From the IMG/VR virus record IMGVR_UViG_3300046536_000394: DNA of 20,000 bases; one strand, written 5' to 3'. Within the stretch, counting starts at the first letter, position 1, and the number at the start of each line of letters is the position of its first letter. Source of the DNA: an uncultured virus (IMG/VR IMGVR_UViG_3300046536_000394) (Duplodnaviria; Heunggongvirae; Uroviricota; Caudoviricetes). This document shows positions 3,296-18,664 of this stretch, piece after piece. The notes under the pieces were generated by a model. The model was not told where the DNA came from and searched no databases. It saw nothing but the letters and a program-made list of their open reading frames with translations. The position numbers and the translations under genes were made by a program.

Positions 3296-3570
3296 CGGCC
3301 CTCCTCCGCAGCCAGCATCTTGGAGAGCTCGATCGGCAACAGCTTCTCCATCGACTTCCGGTAAACCTTGCGGCCATGGGGATCATCGATCGATGCCAGA
3401 AACGATGCCTGGAGCCGCACGAAGGCAGCAACAAAGGCGCGCGGATCCGGCTGGCGCCCTTGCTGCTTCACCTTGCGGGTGATTTCCGAAAACACGGTGG
3501 AGAACCCGGCGATGAGCTCTTCGGTCTGGACGTCCATTTCGGACTTTTTACGCTCGCTTGCGGTCATCAA
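3292..3570 (-). CDS. Hypothetical helical protein
   Basis: 92 aa, coupled on both sides, GGAG upstream. Confidence 0.7.
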   Translation of the reverse strand: MMTASERKKSEMDVQTEELIAGFSTVFSEITRKVKQQGRQPDPRAFVAAFVRLQASFLASIDDPHGRKVYRKSMEKLLPIELSKMLAAEEGR

Positions 3571-4016
3571 AACTCGTACTCCCCTTCGGGTTCACCATTG
3601 CCTCTATCGACGCGCGGCGGACTCAAGACTTCCTCAAGCACGGCCTGCAGCCTGTCGCCCGTCGGCGCCGATGCCGGGAGATCCGATAGGGGCGGCCTAT
3701 CCTCGATCTCATCGAAGTCCGGATCCGGCCGGCTCAAATCGCCAAGCGCCACGGTATGGAATTGGTCGAAGCTCATGACCCAGGCGACATCGTGGTTCTT
3801 GTCGATGCCGATGATGACGCCTTTCAAATCACCGCCATCCCAAACGACCAAGTCGGCGATCTCGAAAGCTGCGCGATGCATGACGGCGTCGGTTTGATTG
3901 ATGTAGATGTTGGACGATCGCGGCATCTCGACTTTCATCTGGCCGCCCTCTTTGTCGACCCACATGACCTCGCCAAGAACCATGACGAGATCGCCCTTTT
4001 TGAACAAATCAGCCAT
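3567..4016 (-). CDS. Hypothetical protein with two SH3/KOW-like repeats
   Basis: Start re-assigned to MADLFKKGDLV with AGGAG upstream; repeats FKKGDLV..GEV..VD and FEIADLV..GVIIGID. Confidence 0.72.
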   Translation of the reverse strand: MADLFKKGDLVMVLGEVMWVDKEGGQMKVEMPRSSNIYINQTDAVMHRAAFEIADLVVWDGGDLKGVIIGIDKNHDVAWVMSFDQFHTVALGDLSRPDPDFDEIEDRPPLSDLPASAPTGDRLQAVLEEVLSPPRVDRGNGEPEGEYEF

Positions 4017-8574: not shown

Positions 8575-8864
8575 TCCGGAAACTCCGGAGGGGCATCGAA
8601 CATCGGCGCCCAGGCGTAGAGATCGCGATCGGTTTTGATGCCGGCCCACCAACCCGTCGGGTGCTGCTTCGTCGGTTCCGTCCGATACGTCGGGATCCAC
8701 TTCATCACCCCGGCATCGATGACGGCGCCAAGGATCGGCTCCGACTTGAACGACGTCGTTGTCCGTGTCCCGCCCTTGCCGTCCGGCCCGGTATGAACCA
8801 GCGTCTTGCCTCGAGGCGCGTTCTCGACGTCGTAACGCCACATGAAAATAACTGTCCTGCTCAT
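8571..8864 (-). CDS. Hypothetical protein (WRYDVENAPRG...YAWAPM, DUF551-like pattern)
   Basis: Start at the ATGA overlap with the LuxR-type stop; 97 aa. Confidence 0.7.
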   Translation of the reverse strand: MSRTVIFMWRYDVENAPRGKTLVHTGPDGKGGTRTTTSFKSEPILGAVIDAGVMKWIPTYRTEPTKQHPTGWWAGIKTDRDLYAWAPMFDAPPEFPE

Positions 8865-9358
8865 AAAACTATCCATCCCCGTTGTAGTGACAGCGCCACG
8901 GCGGCCGTCGTGTTTCTGACGTTGAGCTTGTGGCGGATCGCCGTGTTCAAATGAACCATCGAGCTAGCCGACCTCTTCATGACGCGCCCGATCTCCGCGT
9001 TGGTGTGGCCATGCGCCGCCAGCGAAAGAGCCTCAGTCTCGATGACGTTGAGCGGAGAGCGCATCTTCGCATCTATCCTATCCAACGCCTTCGAAACCAA
9101 CTGGATCGCGTCCAGGATATCGTTGCCGCCGTCTGGTTTTGGAGAGCGAAAGGCGAACCGGAGCTGGCGTGCTGCATCGATCAGCGTGAGATCCCCAACC
9201 GGCGCGACGCGCTCCATCATGTCAAAATCTTCGGCGAGGGCTTCGGCGCATGCCTTCCAGCCGTCACGCCATCCAGCCTGCCGGCTTTCGTGCTTCGGTA
9301 TGTTGGCGTAGGATTTCAAGATATCGCGCCATCCTGGCGGAATTGGTGGTTTCGTCAT
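8861..9358 (-). CDS. LuxR/GerE-type C-terminal HTH transcriptional regulator
   Basis: LNVIETEALSLAAHGHTNAEIG...IRHKLNVRNTTAAVALSLQRGWI; start re-assigned to MTKPP (ATGA overlap, GAGG upstream). Confidence 0.85.
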   Translation of the reverse strand: MTKPPIPPGWRDILKSYANIPKHESRQAGWRDGWKACAEALAEDFDMMERVAPVGDLTLIDAARQLRFAFRSPKPDGGNDILDAIQLVSKALDRIDAKMRSPLNVIETEALSLAAHGHTNAEIGRVMKRSASSMVHLNTAIRHKLNVRNTTAAVALSLQRGWIVL

Positions 9359-9552
9359 CTCGACTTCCTCGTGAAGTGCATTCGATAGCAGCCCTTGGCA
9401 AATTTCGATGGCTCGAATGGCTCTCTCACCAATGATGTCCCGGTCCATTGCATTCCATTCTCTTTTGCGAGGGCCCTGGCCGCGTCGCGTTCTGCATTAG
9501 AAGCCACTACGACTTCAGCACGATCGTCGCTTATCCTGAGGCACAGCGTCAT
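9355..9552 (-). CDS. Hypothetical protein (MTLCLRISDD...)
   Basis: 65 aa, ATGA-coupled to both the ProQ-like and LuxR-type genes. Confidence 0.65.
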   Translation of the reverse strand: MTLCLRISDDRAEVVVASNAERDAARALAKENGMQWTGTSLVREPFEPSKFAKGCYRMHFTRKSR

Positions 9553-10229
9553 TTCGCATCGCGCTCGCGGATCCGGCGTTCGAAGTCGGCGATTCGTGCG
9601 TCGTCTTGCGCTTTGCGGCCGCTGGAATGATACCAGTTGTCGCTCATCGAAGCGGCGTATTGGTAGTATTTCAGGCGCTCCAGCTCTTCCTCGAGCGTCG
9701 GCATCGGGACGAAGTCGTCCGGGATCCCCATCTTCGCAGCGGGCACCCCCATGACATCGGCCATGTGCTTGCGGTTCATCTCCGCCCACTGCTCATAGGA
9801 AAGTACAAGTGGATCGGCAGTCGGAGCGCCAAACAATGCCTCGCCGACCTGGACCGGTCCCGCGGGGTCTCGCTTCGGATTAGGAATGCGTTTGCCGGCA
9901 TTGAGGAGCTCGATACACGCCTTGGCGTACTCTGCGGCGTCATCGTCCACGAAGCCGGAGAACATGCCTGCGAGCCCTACCCTGACGGCGCCCTTTCGGC
10001 ATGCCTGGAAATAATGGATGCCGGTGACGTAGTCGGTCATGAAGGCGGAGATGTGCCGATGCGACAGACCCGGGAATTTCTCGCGGGCATCCTTCAGCAG
10101 ATCTCTCTTGATACCAATTTTCAGGGGACGCTTTGCAAGCCCTGGGGCGACGAAGCAATTCGGATACTCGTGCACCATAGCGGTGCGGAGCTGGTTCATT
10201 TCCAGCTTAGAAACCCGTTTGCGGGACAT
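9549..10229 (-). CDS. ProQ/FinO-domain RNA chaperone with extra C-terminal region
   Basis: YPNCF...KRPLKIGIKRDL...MTDYV...YFQAC.KGAVRVGLAG...G.V matches the ProQ/FinO core; GGAG upstream of ATG 10229. Confidence 0.88.
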   Translation of the reverse strand: MSRKRVSKLEMNQLRTAMVHEYPNCFVAPGLAKRPLKIGIKRDLLKDAREKFPGLSHRHISAFMTDYVTGIHYFQACRKGAVRVGLAGMFSGFVDDDAAEYAKACIELLNAGKRIPNPKRDPAGPVQVGEALFGAPTADPLVLSYEQWAEMNRKHMADVMGVPAAKMGIPDDFVPMPTLEEELERLKYYQYAASMSDNWYHSSGRKAQDDARIADFERRIRERDAK

Positions 10230-10257
10230 TGATTCCATCTCCAAGGAACGATGGATT

Positions 10258-10309
10258 ATGTATACCTTTCTGATTAGAAAGCGCAATAGGTATACGAATA
10301 AAAATATAC
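10258..10309 (-). promoter_or_regulatory. Leftward promoter/operator (PL/OL-like)
   Basis: GTATAC at 10260 and 10290 plus ATATAC at 10304; on the minus strand TTGCGC-N16-TATACA; inverted repeat CTTTCT-N4-AGAAAG at 10266-10281; AT-rich. Confidence 0.6.
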
Positions 10310-10347
10310 AATTTTATCGACCTGGGATTAATCCCTATTGACGAGGG

Positions 10348-10917
10348 TGCGTCTAAGCCCGAAAAGAAAAAGCCCACGGAGGGAAAAGATCCGACCGTGG
10401 GCTCTGTGAGCAAAAACTGCCTGCCAAGACAATTGACGAGATTTATAAGGGAAAATCCCTGATCGTTCAATAGTGAAGCGGCTCACAGAGGCTTAAAAGC
10501 CCGGAAATGATGGGTCCGCTCGGTGGTTCCCGCCATTGTTTTGAAGCTTTGAGGCTTGAGTGACGCGGTTTCCAAGTGATTCGCCCGCGCTGCCGATCTT
10601 TTCCGGACCATGAATTGCTTTGCGGTGCTGATGCCTGGCTCATCAGACGGAATCGATCAGGCTTAGACCCCCTGCCGGGAACACCGCTTTTGCAAGGCGC
10701 CGGGAAACTCAACCAGATTATACCGAAGCCAAGACACGGCTTTCGCTCGTATTGCCCATAAATGATCGTGACGAGATCGATAAAAAGACTGGCAATGTTA
10801 GACGCAGTAGCGGCTGCGAAATCAAACCGAGGTTGAGATTAGGATGATTCCACGGATGCTTGGTGCTGAAGGGCTGCACCGGAATAGACCGCGTCTCGCT
10901 GTGTTAGAGACGGTCTA
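10348..10917 (-). ncRNA. Putative large structured non-coding RNA (ends and strand uncertain)
   Basis: No credible ORF; many perfect 6-10 bp stems, both local and nested long-range; ends in a minus-strand intrinsic terminator. Confidence 0.5.
10361..10403 (-). terminator. Rho-independent terminator of a minus-strand transcript
   Basis: Stem AGCCCACGG (10371-10379) / CCGTGGGCT (10395-10403), followed on the minus strand by TTTTCTTTTC. Confidence 0.8.
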
Positions 10918-10954
10918 AAATGATACCTGTACCCAATCGATAGAATAATCATAA

Positions 10955-11001
10955 AAAGGTATACATTCCGCTTGCACCACTAACCCGGAATACGTATACA
11001 T
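10955..11001 (+). promoter_or_regulatory. Rightward promoter/operator (PR/OR-like)
   Basis: CTTGCA-N17-GTATAC (10971-10999) resembles the rhizobial sigma70 consensus CTTGAC-N17-CTATAT; AAAGGTATACAT (10955-10966) is the exact reverse complement of 10258-10269. Confidence 0.65.
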
Positions 11002-11032
11002 TTATGTGACGGCTTAATCAGTGAGAGTTAGA

Positions 11033-11275
11033 ATGCGAATCAAACATACCGCTACAGACCTGGGAGATCGGACCGGTGTCGCCGCTTTGTCAGCGACGCT
11101 TTTCCTCAACGAAGTCGCGGAGAAATTGGGGCTTTCGCACATTGCTGTTCGCAAGTGGTCACGCATCCCCAATAAGCATCTCGATGCCGTACACGAGATG
11201 TCCGATATCCCGCTCCACATCCTCCGGCCTGATCGTTTCGACATCAACGGGCCAATCGAAAAAACCAAATCATAA
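11033..11275 (+). CDS. Cro/YdaS-like HTH regulator
   Basis: EVAEKLGLSHIAVRKW.RIP...VHEMSDIP.HILRPD.F pattern; first gene of the rightward operon. Confidence 0.85.
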   Translation: MRIKHTATDLGDRTGVAALSATLFLNEVAEKLGLSHIAVRKWSRIPNKHLDAVHEMSDIPLHILRPDRFDINGPIEKTKS

Positions 11276-11538
11276 AGCTTTCCCTGCAACCGTCTTGACG
11301 CTTGGGCAGGGGCGACACCGTGCGGAGAAATTAGGCGACGATCCGGATTAGATACCCGGGAAATGGAGAGGGGCCGGTGGAGAGCTCACCGGTGCAGGGT
11401 TCCCAGGGTAAGCACATTCCCCCTGGGATGGAATTCATAACTCACCAAAATCGTCGCAAGTCGCCCATTTGTAGCACCGCGGGAAACCAGAAAATGAAAC
11501 ACTTTTCTCCGATGGAGATTAAGAAGGGAAGCAATAAA

Positions 11539-12300
11539 ATGGCGAAGAAACCCGCCCCAGGCGCAGGCCACAACGGGACCGGACTTACCGAAGATCAGGA
11601 AAAGGTCTTTGTTGTCGAGCTTCAGAATTTCACGGATGCCGAATCCTCCATGGCGGAGAAAAAGGGTTCGATGTCCGGCATCATGAAGCGCCTCGAGTCC
11701 GCCGGCTTCACCCCGGAACACATCAAGTGGGCGAAGCGTCTGAAGAAAGAAAACGTCGCGTCCATCATCGGCGATCTGAAGATGAAGATCGGCATCGCGC
11801 GCTTGCTCGGCCACGCCGCCGGTCGCCAGCTCGATATCTTCGACGATCGCACCCCGCTCGAGGACGCCGCCTATCTCGAGGGCTTGTCCGACGGCAAGAT
11901 GGGCGTCGCCAATGCGAACCCCTACGGCATGGATACCGCAGCCGGCCAGCGTTGGCAGCAGGGCAGCAACGAAGGCCACACGCTCCGGAACGCTTGGCTG
12001 AACGAAGCCATCAATGGCAAGCCTCCTGCAGCCGAAATCATCAAGGGCGACGCCGATGTTGAAGATGAGACCGAAGAAGCTGGCAACGAAGCCGAAGCTG
12101 TCGCGGCTGTCGAAGTTGTTCAGGAAGCGCCCGCCGTGGCCGATATACCCTTCGCGGATGCCGCTGAAGACGCTGACACCGGCAATTTGGGGCGGGGAGA
12201 TGGTGTCGAGCGCGAAGAGGGCGCCGTTCCGGTGGAAGTAGCGCCGGCCGCCGCATCCGACGATTGGGACAACGAGACCCCGCCGCCTCGTGCGGCATAA
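11539..12300 (+). CDS. Protein with GapR/DUF2312-like N-terminus, RMF-like middle motif and acidic tail
   Basis: GHN motif, then a coiled coil and KRLESAGFT; AYLEG..DGKMG....NPY......QRWQQG..EG; D/E-rich C-terminus. The start could be at 11494 or 11512. Confidence 0.7.
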   Translation: MAKKPAPGAGHNGTGLTEDQEKVFVVELQNFTDAESSMAEKKGSMSGIMKRLESAGFTPEHIKWAKRLKKENVASIIGDLKMKIGIARLLGHAAGRQLDIFDDRTPLEDAAYLEGLSDGKMGVANANPYGMDTAAGQRWQQGSNEGHTLRNAWLNEAINGKPPAAEIIKGDADVEDETEEAGNEAEAVAAVEVVQEAPAVADIPFADAAEDADTGNLGRGDGVEREEGAVPVEVAPAAASDDWDNETPPPRAA

Positions 12301-12416
12301 GAATTAACCGGGCACCCCAAACGGCCGGTTAGTCAGTGCGTCAGGGGTGGATCTTAACGTCCGCATCGTGAGTCCACCCCTCCGCTACCCAAATTACCTC
12401 CCCTACAAGCGATCAG

Positions 12417-13211
12417 ATGACAAAAGCCATTTTCAAATCGGAAGCGGAGCTTTGCCGCGCCTTCATTTCGCAGCTCCCAAAGGGCTGGACCGCTTATGCC
12501 GAGTCTTGCAATTTCGATATCGTCCTGGCGCATGCCGACGGGACACAGATCGGCATCGAAGCCAAGCTTACCTTGAATGCAAAAGTCATCCTCCAGGCCG
12601 TCGATCGCACCACGAAGTATCGGGAAAAGGGGCCGGATTTCCGCGCCGTGCTTGTTCCGGCCGGGACAGCCGGACACGAGATGAAGGCAATTGCCAAGCT
12701 CCTCGGGCTCACCACGATCGAGATGAAGTCGAAAGAGCTCTATCTCGAGACAAAACGGAAGTACATGGAGAACGACAAGTTCACGCCGCACCTTCCCCTC
12801 GATCCTCGATCCGCATGGCGGGCCAATGATTACTGGATCGACTGCGCGCCGATCGACCGCCTGAAGCTGCCGGAATACGTTCCGGATGTCACTGCCGGCG
12901 CCTCCGGCCCCTCGCAATTGTCCGAGTGGAAAATCAAGGCGATCAAGATCTGCGTTCTCCTCGAGAAAATTGGTTATGTCACCCCGATGGATTTTGCCGA
13001 AATCGGCATCGACCGCGGCCGCTTCGTCACCATGGGGTGGATCAAAATGAACCCGGAGAAGCGCGGCCACTATCTCCCAGGTTTCTGCGCCCTGGATCTC
13101 CGCCGCGCCCATCCGCGCAATTACGTTGAGATCGAAGCCCATTTCGAAAAGTGGAGGCCGAAAAAGGGCATCCCGCAGACTGTCATCACCATTGAAGGGG
13201 AAACGGTATGA
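12417..13211 (+). CDS. Phage PD-(D/E)XK restriction-endonuclease-fold protein
   Basis: SEAELC...YAE...FDIVL...IGIEAKL motif spacing. Confidence 0.75.
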   Translation: MTKAIFKSEAELCRAFISQLPKGWTAYAESCNFDIVLAHADGTQIGIEAKLTLNAKVILQAVDRTTKYREKGPDFRAVLVPAGTAGHEMKAIAKLLGLTTIEMKSKELYLETKRKYMENDKFTPHLPLDPRSAWRANDYWIDCAPIDRLKLPEYVPDVTAGASGPSQLSEWKIKAIKICVLLEKIGYVTPMDFAEIGIDRGRFVTMGWIKMNPEKRGHYLPGFCALDLRRAHPRNYVEIEAHFEKWRPKKGIPQTVITIEGETV

Positions 13212-13699
13212 GCATGTTTGAAGAGGCTTCGTTGAGATCCATGGCGTGCAGCGAATCGGCTCTCGCCATTGGGATAGCTGCGGAGCACTTGGTTTGCGCT
13301 GATTTGATTATCAAGGGCTACAAGGCTTTCTCCAGCGATCAAACCTCGCCGTACAACATCGTCGTCGATATGGGCGATCGACTACTGCGGATCCAGGTAA
13401 AGGCGACGTGCTTCCCAAAGAATTTGAACGCGAACGGTAGGTCTAGCCGGATCGGCTACGGGTTCCATGTTCGCAGGCGCGGCAAGTTTCAAGATAAGCG
13501 TCTCGACGAAACGCATTGCGACCTGGTCGCCTTCGTGGCGATGGATATTTGCAAGATTGGATACCTACCCGTCGGCGAGTGCGGGCAGACATTCCAGGTC
13601 ATGGGTCCGGGGTTTGAATTCAAAGGGAAAGTCAAGCGTAGCCGGATCGTTAGCATCGACAAGATGCCGTTCTCTGAAGCCGTTGCGAGGTTGCCATGA
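13208..13699 (+). CDS. PD-(D/E)XK endonuclease, I-Ssp6803I-like (PDDEXK_5) homing-endonuclease type
   Basis: GIAAEHLVCADL...GY...PY[N]IVVD....LLRIQVKAT...CDLVAFV. Confidence 0.8.
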   Translation: MSMFEEASLRSMACSESALAIGIAAEHLVCADLIIKGYKAFSSDQTSPYNIVVDMGDRLLRIQVKATCFPKNLNANGRSSRIGYGFHVRRRGKFQDKRLDETHCDLVAFVAMDICKIGYLPVGECGQTFQVMGPGFEFKGKVKRSRIVSIDKMPFSEAVARLP

Positions 13700-18488: not shown

Positions 18489-18664
18489 TTCTCTATCGCG
18501 CGAGCCAAGGCGGGAACCTTGCTCGCGGTCCAGTCCAAGACCTCGAGGATGATAGCCTCGAGGACAGCCTCCGTGATGGCTTGACCCGCGAATTTCTCCA
18601 TCAGGTGTTTTGAGATATCGACATCGTCTCGAGCGACAAATTCGAATTCAGTCCGCGCTGTCAA
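18485..18664 (-). CDS. Hypothetical protein
   Basis: Likely TTG start overlapping the upstream TGA (TTGA), with GGGGGA upstream; alternative ATG at 18697. Confidence 0.55.
   Translation of the reverse strand: MTARTEFEFVARDDVDISKHLMEKFAGQAITEAVLEAIILEVLDWTASKVPALARAIEN

Follow-up and report, generated by a model that had tools for sequence, protein, structure and literature searches.

Large, elaborately folded RNA classes are rare in bacteria and phages (OLE, GOLLD, ROOL, and raiA), and each of them has opened new structural biology. Among the smaller RNAs of phage immunity regions, P4 CI RNA and P1 C4 are about 70 nucleotides (nt) long, are processed from the leader of the operon that they control, and pair with targets there. 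Temperate phages keep prophage-expressed accessory functions beside cI, and in a lambda-type immunity region cI and accessory genes of the rex/sieB/nun kind are followed by tImm and PL. In the FinO-type pairs FinP-FinO, Inc-FopA, and RocR-RocC, the RNA is a small regulator that reaches known targets by antisense or seed pairing, and we know of no phage-borne ProQ protein with a known RNA partner. Here, we describe an element in a 20,000-nt stretch of DNA (the window) of an uncultured Caudoviricetes virus (IMG/VR record IMGVR_UViG_3300046536_000394), which comes from the genome of a phage found in rhizosphere metagenomes. Between its two early operons, in an interval of 803 nt (10230-11032), the window very probably carries the gene of a structured noncoding RNA of about 566 nt (10352..10917, minus strand), placed by homologue alignment, nhmmer, and covariation.

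The closest known kind of RNA is that of the large, ornate phage RNAs ROOL and GOLLD. Like these, the window RNA is several hundred nucleotides long, is encoded by phages and prophages, and has many covarying helices and pseudoknot or kissing contacts; with GOLLD it also shares a conserved 3' and a variable 5' region (PMC12286853). It differs from both in that no match to their Rfam models was obtained at an E value of ≤10 for the interval or of ≤5 for its relatives, nor at the gathering threshold. Furthermore, it sits not beside tRNA islands but in the immunity region next to cI (the sole ARAGORN call in the window, at 18498-18590, is about 7.6 kb away), its terminator is part of the fold, and its hosts are alphaproteobacteria of the Hyphomicrobiales type. 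As in the FinO-type pairs, a FinO gene of a mobile element lies beside an RNA with a GC-rich terminator hairpin and a U-tail, the kind of ligand to which such proteins bind (PMC9977716). In contrast to their RNAs, however, the window RNA is about 566 nt long, no antisense target was found for it in the phage, and a FinO protein is absent from 9 of 10 whole records that bear the RNA.

Like P4 CI RNA and P1 C4, the window RNA is a noncoding RNA of an immunity region that is transcribed toward an early operon and contains internal complementary segments. In the window RNA, the pairing of these segments is a structural contact between two loops, kept in heteroimmune phages. The RNA lies upstream of the early promoter, behind a terminator and outside the operon transcript, with no complementarity to the operon, and most relatives have a canonical CI; the features that define P4 CI RNA and C4 are thus not those of the window RNA. 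In its surroundings the family resembles a lambda-type immunity region: in BiPBO1, L133, L161, and others, the order is Cro, divergent promoters, CI, none to three small accessory genes, the element, its terminator, and then the leftward recombination operon (exoVIII/RecT), preceded by its operators and promoter. The difference is that the accessory slot holds a large RNA instead of a protein gene and that the window lineage is without CI; the CI of a lambda-type CI/Cro switch, with a helix-turn-helix (HTH) and an S24 domain, was not found for the window phage.

Our account as a whole, which we hold with moderate confidence, is that this RNA, about 566 nt long, represents a new family, most likely has a conserved partner on which it acts in trans, and is not a lysis-lysogeny switch. 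A preliminary description of the same DNA had suggested that a structured RNA and a ProQ/FinO chaperone take the place of the CI repressor, and it had proposed collecting homologues and testing them for covariation, comparing the interval with Rfam, and looking for a decayed repressor gene in the interval and for a CI gene elsewhere in the genome. The family has not been described before and is absent from Rfam 15, which gave no match at the gathering threshold over the whole window, neither to GOLLD, ROOL, tmRNA, RNase P, 6S, or ar14 nor to any other family. The best subthreshold matches on the interval were RT-2 on the opposite strand (18.5 bits, against a threshold of 40) and ar14 (16.9 against 58.8), and no match was consistent on three relatives. 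What characterizes the family is strong covariation, a defined address between cI and the leftward early promoter, and a built-in terminator.

Searches of IMG/VR based on ProQ and Cro yielded a complete myovirus-like genome of 66.3 kb with direct terminal repeats (G002), whose interval is 97% identical to that of the window. A more distant relative, L011, was found with a profile of the ProQ subfamily; its ProQ protein is 52% identical, its gene order is the same, and its interval is homologous but diverged. The window RNA is 72% identical to that of L011, where the ProQ coding sequence shows 59.5% nucleotide identity, and 67% identical to that of L133. The latter is one of three metagenome contigs (L132, L133, and L128) found with an 18-nt invariant block, which were the only true members among 19 matches; the RNAs of L132 and L133 are identical to each other. 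A block of 23 nt, invariant among the known lineages except at two positions, which were written as IUPAC letters, matched 31 IMG/VR loci. Membership was judged by nhmmer profiles, and 29 of the 31 loci were confirmed in this way (26 clusters at 97%), with six new loci matching across the full length of the RNA. In addition, BLASTn with one member led to the temperate Brucella phage BiPBO1. Six of nine IMG/VR records checked are of the provirus class, and the carriers of the family are temperate phages and prophages of Brucella/Ochrobactrum-type (Hyphomicrobiales) hosts, together with related soil phages. At least one cultured, sequenced phage carries the RNA, so that its function can be tested more readily than that of RNAs known from metagenomes only.

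Other searches added no members. An 18-mer scan of genome contigs gave 14 loci, all due to chance, and among the 77 loci from 15-mer and 16-mer scans of viral sequences, the true ones were the two contigs already known. No match was obtained by BLASTn when phages were searched with the region or plasmids with the RNA, and reads from four runs contained near-identical contigs of relatives and no new diversity.

The preliminary description called the interval highly base-paired. As a single sequence it folds only modestly better than shuffled sequences (z of -1.90 for the minus strand and -1.88 for the plus strand), and because this is unremarkable, the claim rests on comparative evidence, which is strong. 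Two structures were tested: an RNAalifold structure over the full length, with 5 distinct sequences and 100 pairs in 18 helices, and one of the 3' half, with 29 sequences and 40 pairs. The proportion of paired cells (95.0% over the full length against 86.5% in shuffles; 94.4% in the 3' half against 82.9%) is inflated by the derivation of the tested structures from the same sequences, and the changes on both sides of a pair, with slid structures as controls, are the fairer measure. Over the full length such double-sided changes occur in 23 of the 100 pairs, compared with 12.4 in shuffled alignments (0/500) and 0 to 3 when the structure is slid by 1 to 3 columns. For the 3' half the numbers are 24 of 40 pairs (11.4 shuffled, 0/500; 7 to 12 slid) and 118 cells (34.3 shuffled, 0/500; 13 to 21 slid), with a covariation score of 0.285 against 0.085. 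Thus, the proposed collection of homologues revealed a family whose double-sided changes are well above the controls.

The best-supported elements lie at the 3' end. All 7 pairs of the P1 closing stem (helix 7) and 8 of the 10 pairs of the terminator (helix 8) have changed on both sides; in the latter, pair 313/338 is CG in 16 and GC in 12 sequences, and pair 319/332 is CG in 16 and AU in 10. A kissing contact between the apical loop of the terminator and the loop of an internal hairpin covaries as well (pair 90/326: UA in 23, CG in 3, AU in 2, and another combination in 1). Through this contact the terminator becomes part of the fold, an argument for placing the end of the RNA at this point. 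On this comparative evidence the conserved feature is an RNA structure and neither a protein gene nor a chance fold. MAFFT misaligns the variable interior of P1 and the first hairpin of the 3' half. A long pseudoknot between GGAAAAGAUC and the terminator loop was considered and discarded, as with 29 sequences it proved to be the short loop-loop contact plus a local hairpin.

From its 5' end, the predicted RNA begins with a hairpin (10885..10917) whose outer stem reads UAGACC/GGUCUA or GGAUG/CAUCC depending on the lineage, with double-sided changes in 4 of 6 outer pairs (helices 1 and 2 of the full-length alignment) and a conserved loop, UAACACA. It is followed by the invariant block CCAAGCAUCCGUGGAAUC (10846..10863), which is identical in all six alignment rows and served as a search pattern; its 3' part, GGAAUC, is predicted to pair with GAUUCC about 200 nt downstream (helix 4, invariant, and taken from the fold only). 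In the hairpin CUGAUG-AGCCAGGC-CAUCAG (10630..10646; helix 13, CG:2, UA:2), the loop is conserved and the stem is fully different among members, other stems having been read by eye. The small hairpin CCGG-AAAAGA-UCGG (10593..10606) provides the loop that is complementary to the apical loop of the terminator (10/10 complementary in the repeat search; helices 2 and 3 of the 3' half). The most conserved block of the family, GGCGGGAACC(A/U)CCGAGC(A/G)GACCC (10512..10534), is the one with which the 31 IMG/VR loci were retrieved, and it lies inside a covarying stem (helices 5 and 6). The P1 domain (10402..10490), directly 5' of the terminator, is closed by a 10-bp stem (10481-10490 with 10402-10411) that encloses inner hairpins, and its folds agree across four lineages, each folded individually. 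As a whole, the 3' half (the block, the P1 domain, and the terminator) is universally conserved, and the 5' half is variable.

The minus-strand intrinsic terminator named in the preliminary description (10359..10403) is real. It consists of a two-tier hairpin at 10371-10403 followed on the minus strand by TTTTTCTTTT (an A-run on the plus strand, at about 10359-10370), and with a GC-rich hairpin and a U-tract directly behind it on the transcribed strand, it is a Rho-independent terminator. A simple terminator scanner overlooked the hairpin, the loop of which exceeds 8 nt, and a repeat search shows its arms. A T-tract, defined as 6 or more T residues among the first 10 nt behind the stem, is present in 28 of 29 family members. 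This tract decides the strand, counts of G-U and A-C pairs being unhelpful; it also sets the 3' end of the RNA, while the 5' end was taken from the onset of conservation and the first covarying hairpin. In this respect the preliminary description had been right: the interval appears to encode a large, structured minus-strand RNA that ends at the terminator.

We propose that the RNA is a discrete, stable transcript that would stop at its own terminator; it would either be initiated at its own promoter or form the tail of the transcript from the cI side. Its target in trans would be a conserved partner, most likely of the host (a protein or an RNA), as suggested by the invariant loops and blocks that are kept across heteroimmune phages with different repressors. 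Its role could be an accessory one in the prophage or early in infection, for example exclusion or modulation of the host, because its slot matches the place where temperate phages keep prophage-expressed accessory functions. A trans-acting, host-directed RNA is a possibility that we put forward tentatively. In the window lineage, in which CI is missing, the RNA alone would fill the space between the Cro and ProQ promoters, and ProQ, as the first gene of the next transcription unit, may bind the terminator hairpin and its U-tail.

Several points weigh against this account, in addition to the shared origin of the tested structures and sequences. That the RNA acts in trans on the host is a guess based on its conservation and location. 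No clear promoter was found for the RNA; the region upstream of the 5' hairpin is conserved within sublineages and has no clear -35 element, and the RNA may be just the 3' portion of a longer mRNA. Of the sequencing runs found to contain the stretch, seven were DNA runs and none was an RNA run, which makes the expression, ends, and stability of the RNA predictions from sequence. Counts of G-U against A-C pairs (15 versus 24 on 29 sequences) do not favor the minus strand; on the RNAalifold alignment (30 versus 12) they do so mildly. Among 401 sampled genomes of the class of G004, none contains the 23-nt block, which implies that the family is narrow or patchy; BLAST with the RNA in the same genomes gave one match, which was false. 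As to whether the window phage is temperate, G002 has no match to S24, tyrosine integrase, or serine recombinase. The integrase result is no guide to lifestyle, because complete proviruses with the RNA also lack such matches. Of five other records with the RNA, four (two of them complete proviruses) have no PF00589 at an E value of ≤0.01 and the fifth, G414, has a match below the cutoff; PF00239 was absent in all four records tested. The two complete proviruses, G410 and G412, have neither domain at this E value, and their integration enzyme is of an unrecognized kind or lies outside the record. Relatives of the window phage's large terminase (TerL), about 33% identical, have mixed lifestyles.

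The proposal of an RNA-based switch holds that the large RNA, with ProQ on its terminator, is the repressor or immunity factor of a CI-less lineage, in the manner of P4 CI RNA or P1 C4, and part of what was found fits it. The absence of CI noted in the preliminary description was borne out: the scanned open reading frames (ORFs) of the window include no CI-like HTH/S24 ORF by Pfam (no PF00717), a six-frame search of the complete genome of G002 found none either, and PF00717 was not found in G002 or G003. With the relatives' CI, Arc, and Cro as queries, tBLASTn against the window, G002, and L011 gave nothing (all E values >0.3), so that this search showed no trace of a decayed repressor. Furthermore, the RNA lies exactly between two early promoters, and a FinO gene follows its terminator in four lineages with two diverged types of ProQ. 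Among IMG/VR loci of two-domain ProQ proteins, all three (including L012) have a strong terminator on the same strand 115 to 175 nt upstream, whereas none of 12 FinO-only loci has a comparable one (dG ≤ -18; two have weaker candidates), and FinO domains bind terminator hairpins with U-tails (PMC9977716). However, the window lineage (the window, G002, and L011) is exceptional in having no CI, which it lost or never had. Among 24 representative new loci, with 142 flanking ORFs scanned, a CI-like protein with Peptidase_S24 and mostly also HTH_3 is encoded upstream on the RNA strand in 11, and a canonical CI lies upstream of the RNA in L133, L128, and BiPBO1, so that RNA and CI stand side by side in at least 14 other lineages. 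In the provirus G414 (locus L157), a 2.8-kb segment carries CI, the RNA, and ProQ one after the other on the same strand, and G414 is the only one of 10 whole RNA-bearing records with a FinO protein; likewise, a FinO protein is encoded directly downstream in 1 of the 24 loci (L157). The element keeps a fixed position, on the repressor side of the immunity region and immediately ahead of the leftward early promoter, while the palindromic operators behind its terminator are lineage specific (GTATAC in the window; others, read by eye, in L133, L157, L012, and BiPBO1). Because it is conserved where operators differ, the RNA does not vary with the type of immunity, as an immunity determinant should. 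Neither the window nor G002 contains an antisense target of ≥14 nt, matches of 12 to 13 nt being near chance; ProQ is set apart from the RNA by a terminator and by its own promoter with GTATAC boxes; and the paired boxes at both promoters point to a DNA-binding regulator. An RNA-based switch is in our view very unlikely, and the part of the preliminary description that let RNA and ProQ replace CI could not be upheld: the RNA is quite probably no substitute for CI but a regular companion of a protein switch.

Among the other alternatives, the first has the element act chiefly in cis. It would be a long, structured 3' untranslated region and terminator of the cI-side transcript, a tImm-like insulator that stabilizes the mRNA or sets read-through leftward, and as a free RNA it would do nothing. 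This agrees with its constant place between cI-side genes and the leftward early promoter, with the strong terminator that is always present, with the lack of a clear promoter of its own, and with some members (L158 and L143, estimated from offsets) in which the RNA starts within about 45 nt of the cI stop codon. It is nevertheless unlikely: about 550 nt with some 18 covarying helices, invariant loops, and a loop-loop contact exceed what a terminator or stabilizer needs, an upstream terminator separates the RNA from the cI transcript in BiPBO1 and L133, and in the window lineage there is no upstream gene to serve. It is quite unlikely that the RNA is a new class of self-contained functional RNA (an RNA-only assembly, a catalytic or decoy RNA, or the core of a ribonucleoprotein) that temperate Hyphomicrobiales phages direct from the immunity region against a conserved host machine, coupled in the CI-less lineage to a FinO chaperone and partly controlling early genes. 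If so, a large RNA and its chaperone would in nature have replaced or supplemented a protein repressor module. A DNA element (replication origin, recombination site, or array of protein sites) with incidental RNA structure is suggested by the position of the interval between replication and recombination operons, by palindromes and GANTC-type sites seen by eye in conserved blocks, and by the lack of strand preference in the G-U/A-C count on 29 sequences. We consider it highly improbable, as compensatory changes (24/40 and 23/100 pairs) stand well above shuffled and slid controls, the T-tract after the last hairpin is strand specific (28/29), iterons and an AT-rich unwinding region are absent, and the direct repeats are short and in two copies. 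Hardly credible, finally, is a missed small protein gene or a decayed repressor. The interval does contain ORFs of 53 to 87 amino acids (aa), and ORFs of 44 and 52 aa have been annotated over the homologous region of BiPBO1. However, the ORFs of the interval are short and unconserved, a Pfam scan of four of them gave no match, indels of 1 to 2 nt in close and distant relatives, not multiples of three, break every frame (including the minus-strand ORFs of 81 and 53 aa), and the members share no common frame, their conserved blocks being read in differing frames; the tBLASTn result given above bears equally on a decayed repressor. The claim of the preliminary description that the roughly 800 nt hold no credible gene was confirmed. 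In BiPBO1, gp63 (52 aa; L169, 3199-3357) and gp62 (44 aa; 3535-3669) overlie the RNA homologue and are probably not genes; a term search of the BiPBO1 paper (PMC4729917) found neither "noncoding" nor "non-coding." In this phage, cro-like gp69 and cI-like gp68 are followed by four small genes and a terminator; then come the RNA with its own terminator, the operators, and the leftward operon with exonuclease VIII.

The account that we favor, a companion RNA acting in trans, assigns ProQ a subordinate place. The protein (226 aa; 9549..10229, minus strand), the first gene of the leftward operon and, as the preliminary description had stated, the next gene on the RNA strand, matches the FinO domain PF04352 at residues 11-106 (E value of 9.7e-17; 61.4 bits, against a cutoff of 27). 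Its subfamily is small and has two domains: behind the FinO domain and a variable basic linker lies a C-terminal motif, ASMSDNxYxSSGRK...DDAxI (window 9549-9900), without a Pfam match. The subfamily alignment comprises 18 sequences, one of which, P0018, lacks the motif; ProQ relatives at an E value of ≤0.001 number 517, and tBLASTn of ProQ against phages gave no match. In the window, G002, L011, and L157 (4 of about 30 lineages), the FinO gene begins 98 to 175 nt after the RNA, and the two ProQ types among these neighbors are 32% identical. Conversely, 2 of 15 ProQ-bearing viral loci have the RNA, and the first downstream genes of BiPBO1 and L133 show no similarity to the ProQ profile (hhalign probability of <1%). 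Across relatives, the RNA and ProQ thus do not occur together as a cognate FinO-type pair would, and the phage ProQ is a lineage-specific neighbor and no general requirement of the RNA family. In the window lineage it may still bind the 3' end of the RNA; we regard this as possible but doubtful, its plausibility coming from the FinO gene behind the terminator, the terminators shared by two-domain loci, and the binding of FinO domains to such hairpins. The occasional pairing with FinO offers a concrete candidate ligand for phage-borne ProQ proteins.

In L012 (IMGVR_UViG_2643221653_000001), an unrelated stretch of about 340 nt without ORFs (2540-2895) ends in a strong terminator (stem AAGGCCUCC/GGAGGCCUU and a U-tract). 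Palindromic operators follow this terminator, and 117 nt separate it from a downstream two-domain homologue of ProQ (34% identical). The stretch may represent a second, unrelated RNA paired with the ProQ subfamily.

The two early operons of the window diverge from the interval, which is bounded by the ATG of ProQ (10229) and that of a Cro-like gene (11033, not 11034). Leftward from 10229, the minus-strand operon encodes ProQ/FinO, a LuxR/sigma-like HTH protein (195 aa; 8861-9448), exonuclease VIII-like and RecT-like proteins, and a DUF5131 protein. The rightward (replication) operon starts with the Cro-like small HTH protein (80 aa; 11033..11275, plus strand) and continues with a PD-(D/E)XK nuclease, an MT-A70 methylase, a RuvC-like protein, DnaB, and an HNH protein. 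The Cro-like protein has weak, subthreshold matches to P22_Cro (E value of 0.025) and YdaS (E value of 0.047), and its homologue in L011 was identified by eye.

GTATAC occurs four times in the 20 kb, always at one end of the interval or the other (0.55 expected; none of 200 shuffles gave as many). One pair (10260-10265 and 10290-10295) belongs to a putative promoter/operator of the ProQ operon (10256..10300, minus strand; TTGCGC-N16-TATACA toward ProQ, by eye), and the other (10959-10964 and 10994-10999) to one of the Cro-like gene (10955..11002, plus strand; TTGCAC-N17-TATACA toward Cro), the spacing within the pairs being 30 and 35 bp; in each pair, the box nearer the gene is the one that forms part of the promoter motif. 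The 12-nt sequence AAAGGTATACAT occurs inverted at both ends, and L011 retains similar GGTATAC/GAATACC boxes. By eye, these appear to be two early promoters with common operators for one DNA-binding regulator, for which the Cro-like protein is the obvious candidate; the GTATAC pairs probably serve as operators common to both promoters or as -10 elements, within a regulatory code specific to the phage. A perfect 12-bp palindrome, GGGATTAATCCC (10324..10335), is located between the terminator and the promoter of ProQ; it is a possible protein-binding site, identical in L001 and not conserved in L011.

Small genes are found at the cI side of the RNA in other members. An Arc-like gene is directly upstream of the RNA in 2 of the 24 loci (L149 and L161) and in L133. 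Several lineages share a conserved ORF of about 125 aa that converges on cI and is located between cI and the RNA (L133, 2416-2784, plus strand; L128, 932-1327, minus strand; ORFs of 121 to 132 aa in L138, L145, L160, and L161). It has a GDxMEPxLRGGD-like motif reminiscent of the S24 peptidase core and no Pfam match.

Outside the immunity region, G002 encodes a BrnA-type antitoxin (PF14384, E value of 1.4e-11; 34518-34796, corresponding to L007 14518-14796, minus strand), a DnaN clamp, and a HerA-like ATPase; a toxin-antitoxin pair could hint at an extrachromosomal prophage state. The ARAGORN call mentioned above (18498-18590, minus strand) is a 93-nt "tRNA-Asp" with the odd anticodon ATC. The call may be spurious, or it may mark a tRNA-like element of an unusual kind, perhaps an interrupted one. 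Finally, the window and G002 are 88.7% identical to the left of about 9700 and 96.9% identical over 9734-13212, and within ProQ (window 9700-9750) 48 nt are replaced by 96 nt in G002, which marks a recombination joint in the linker of the protein.

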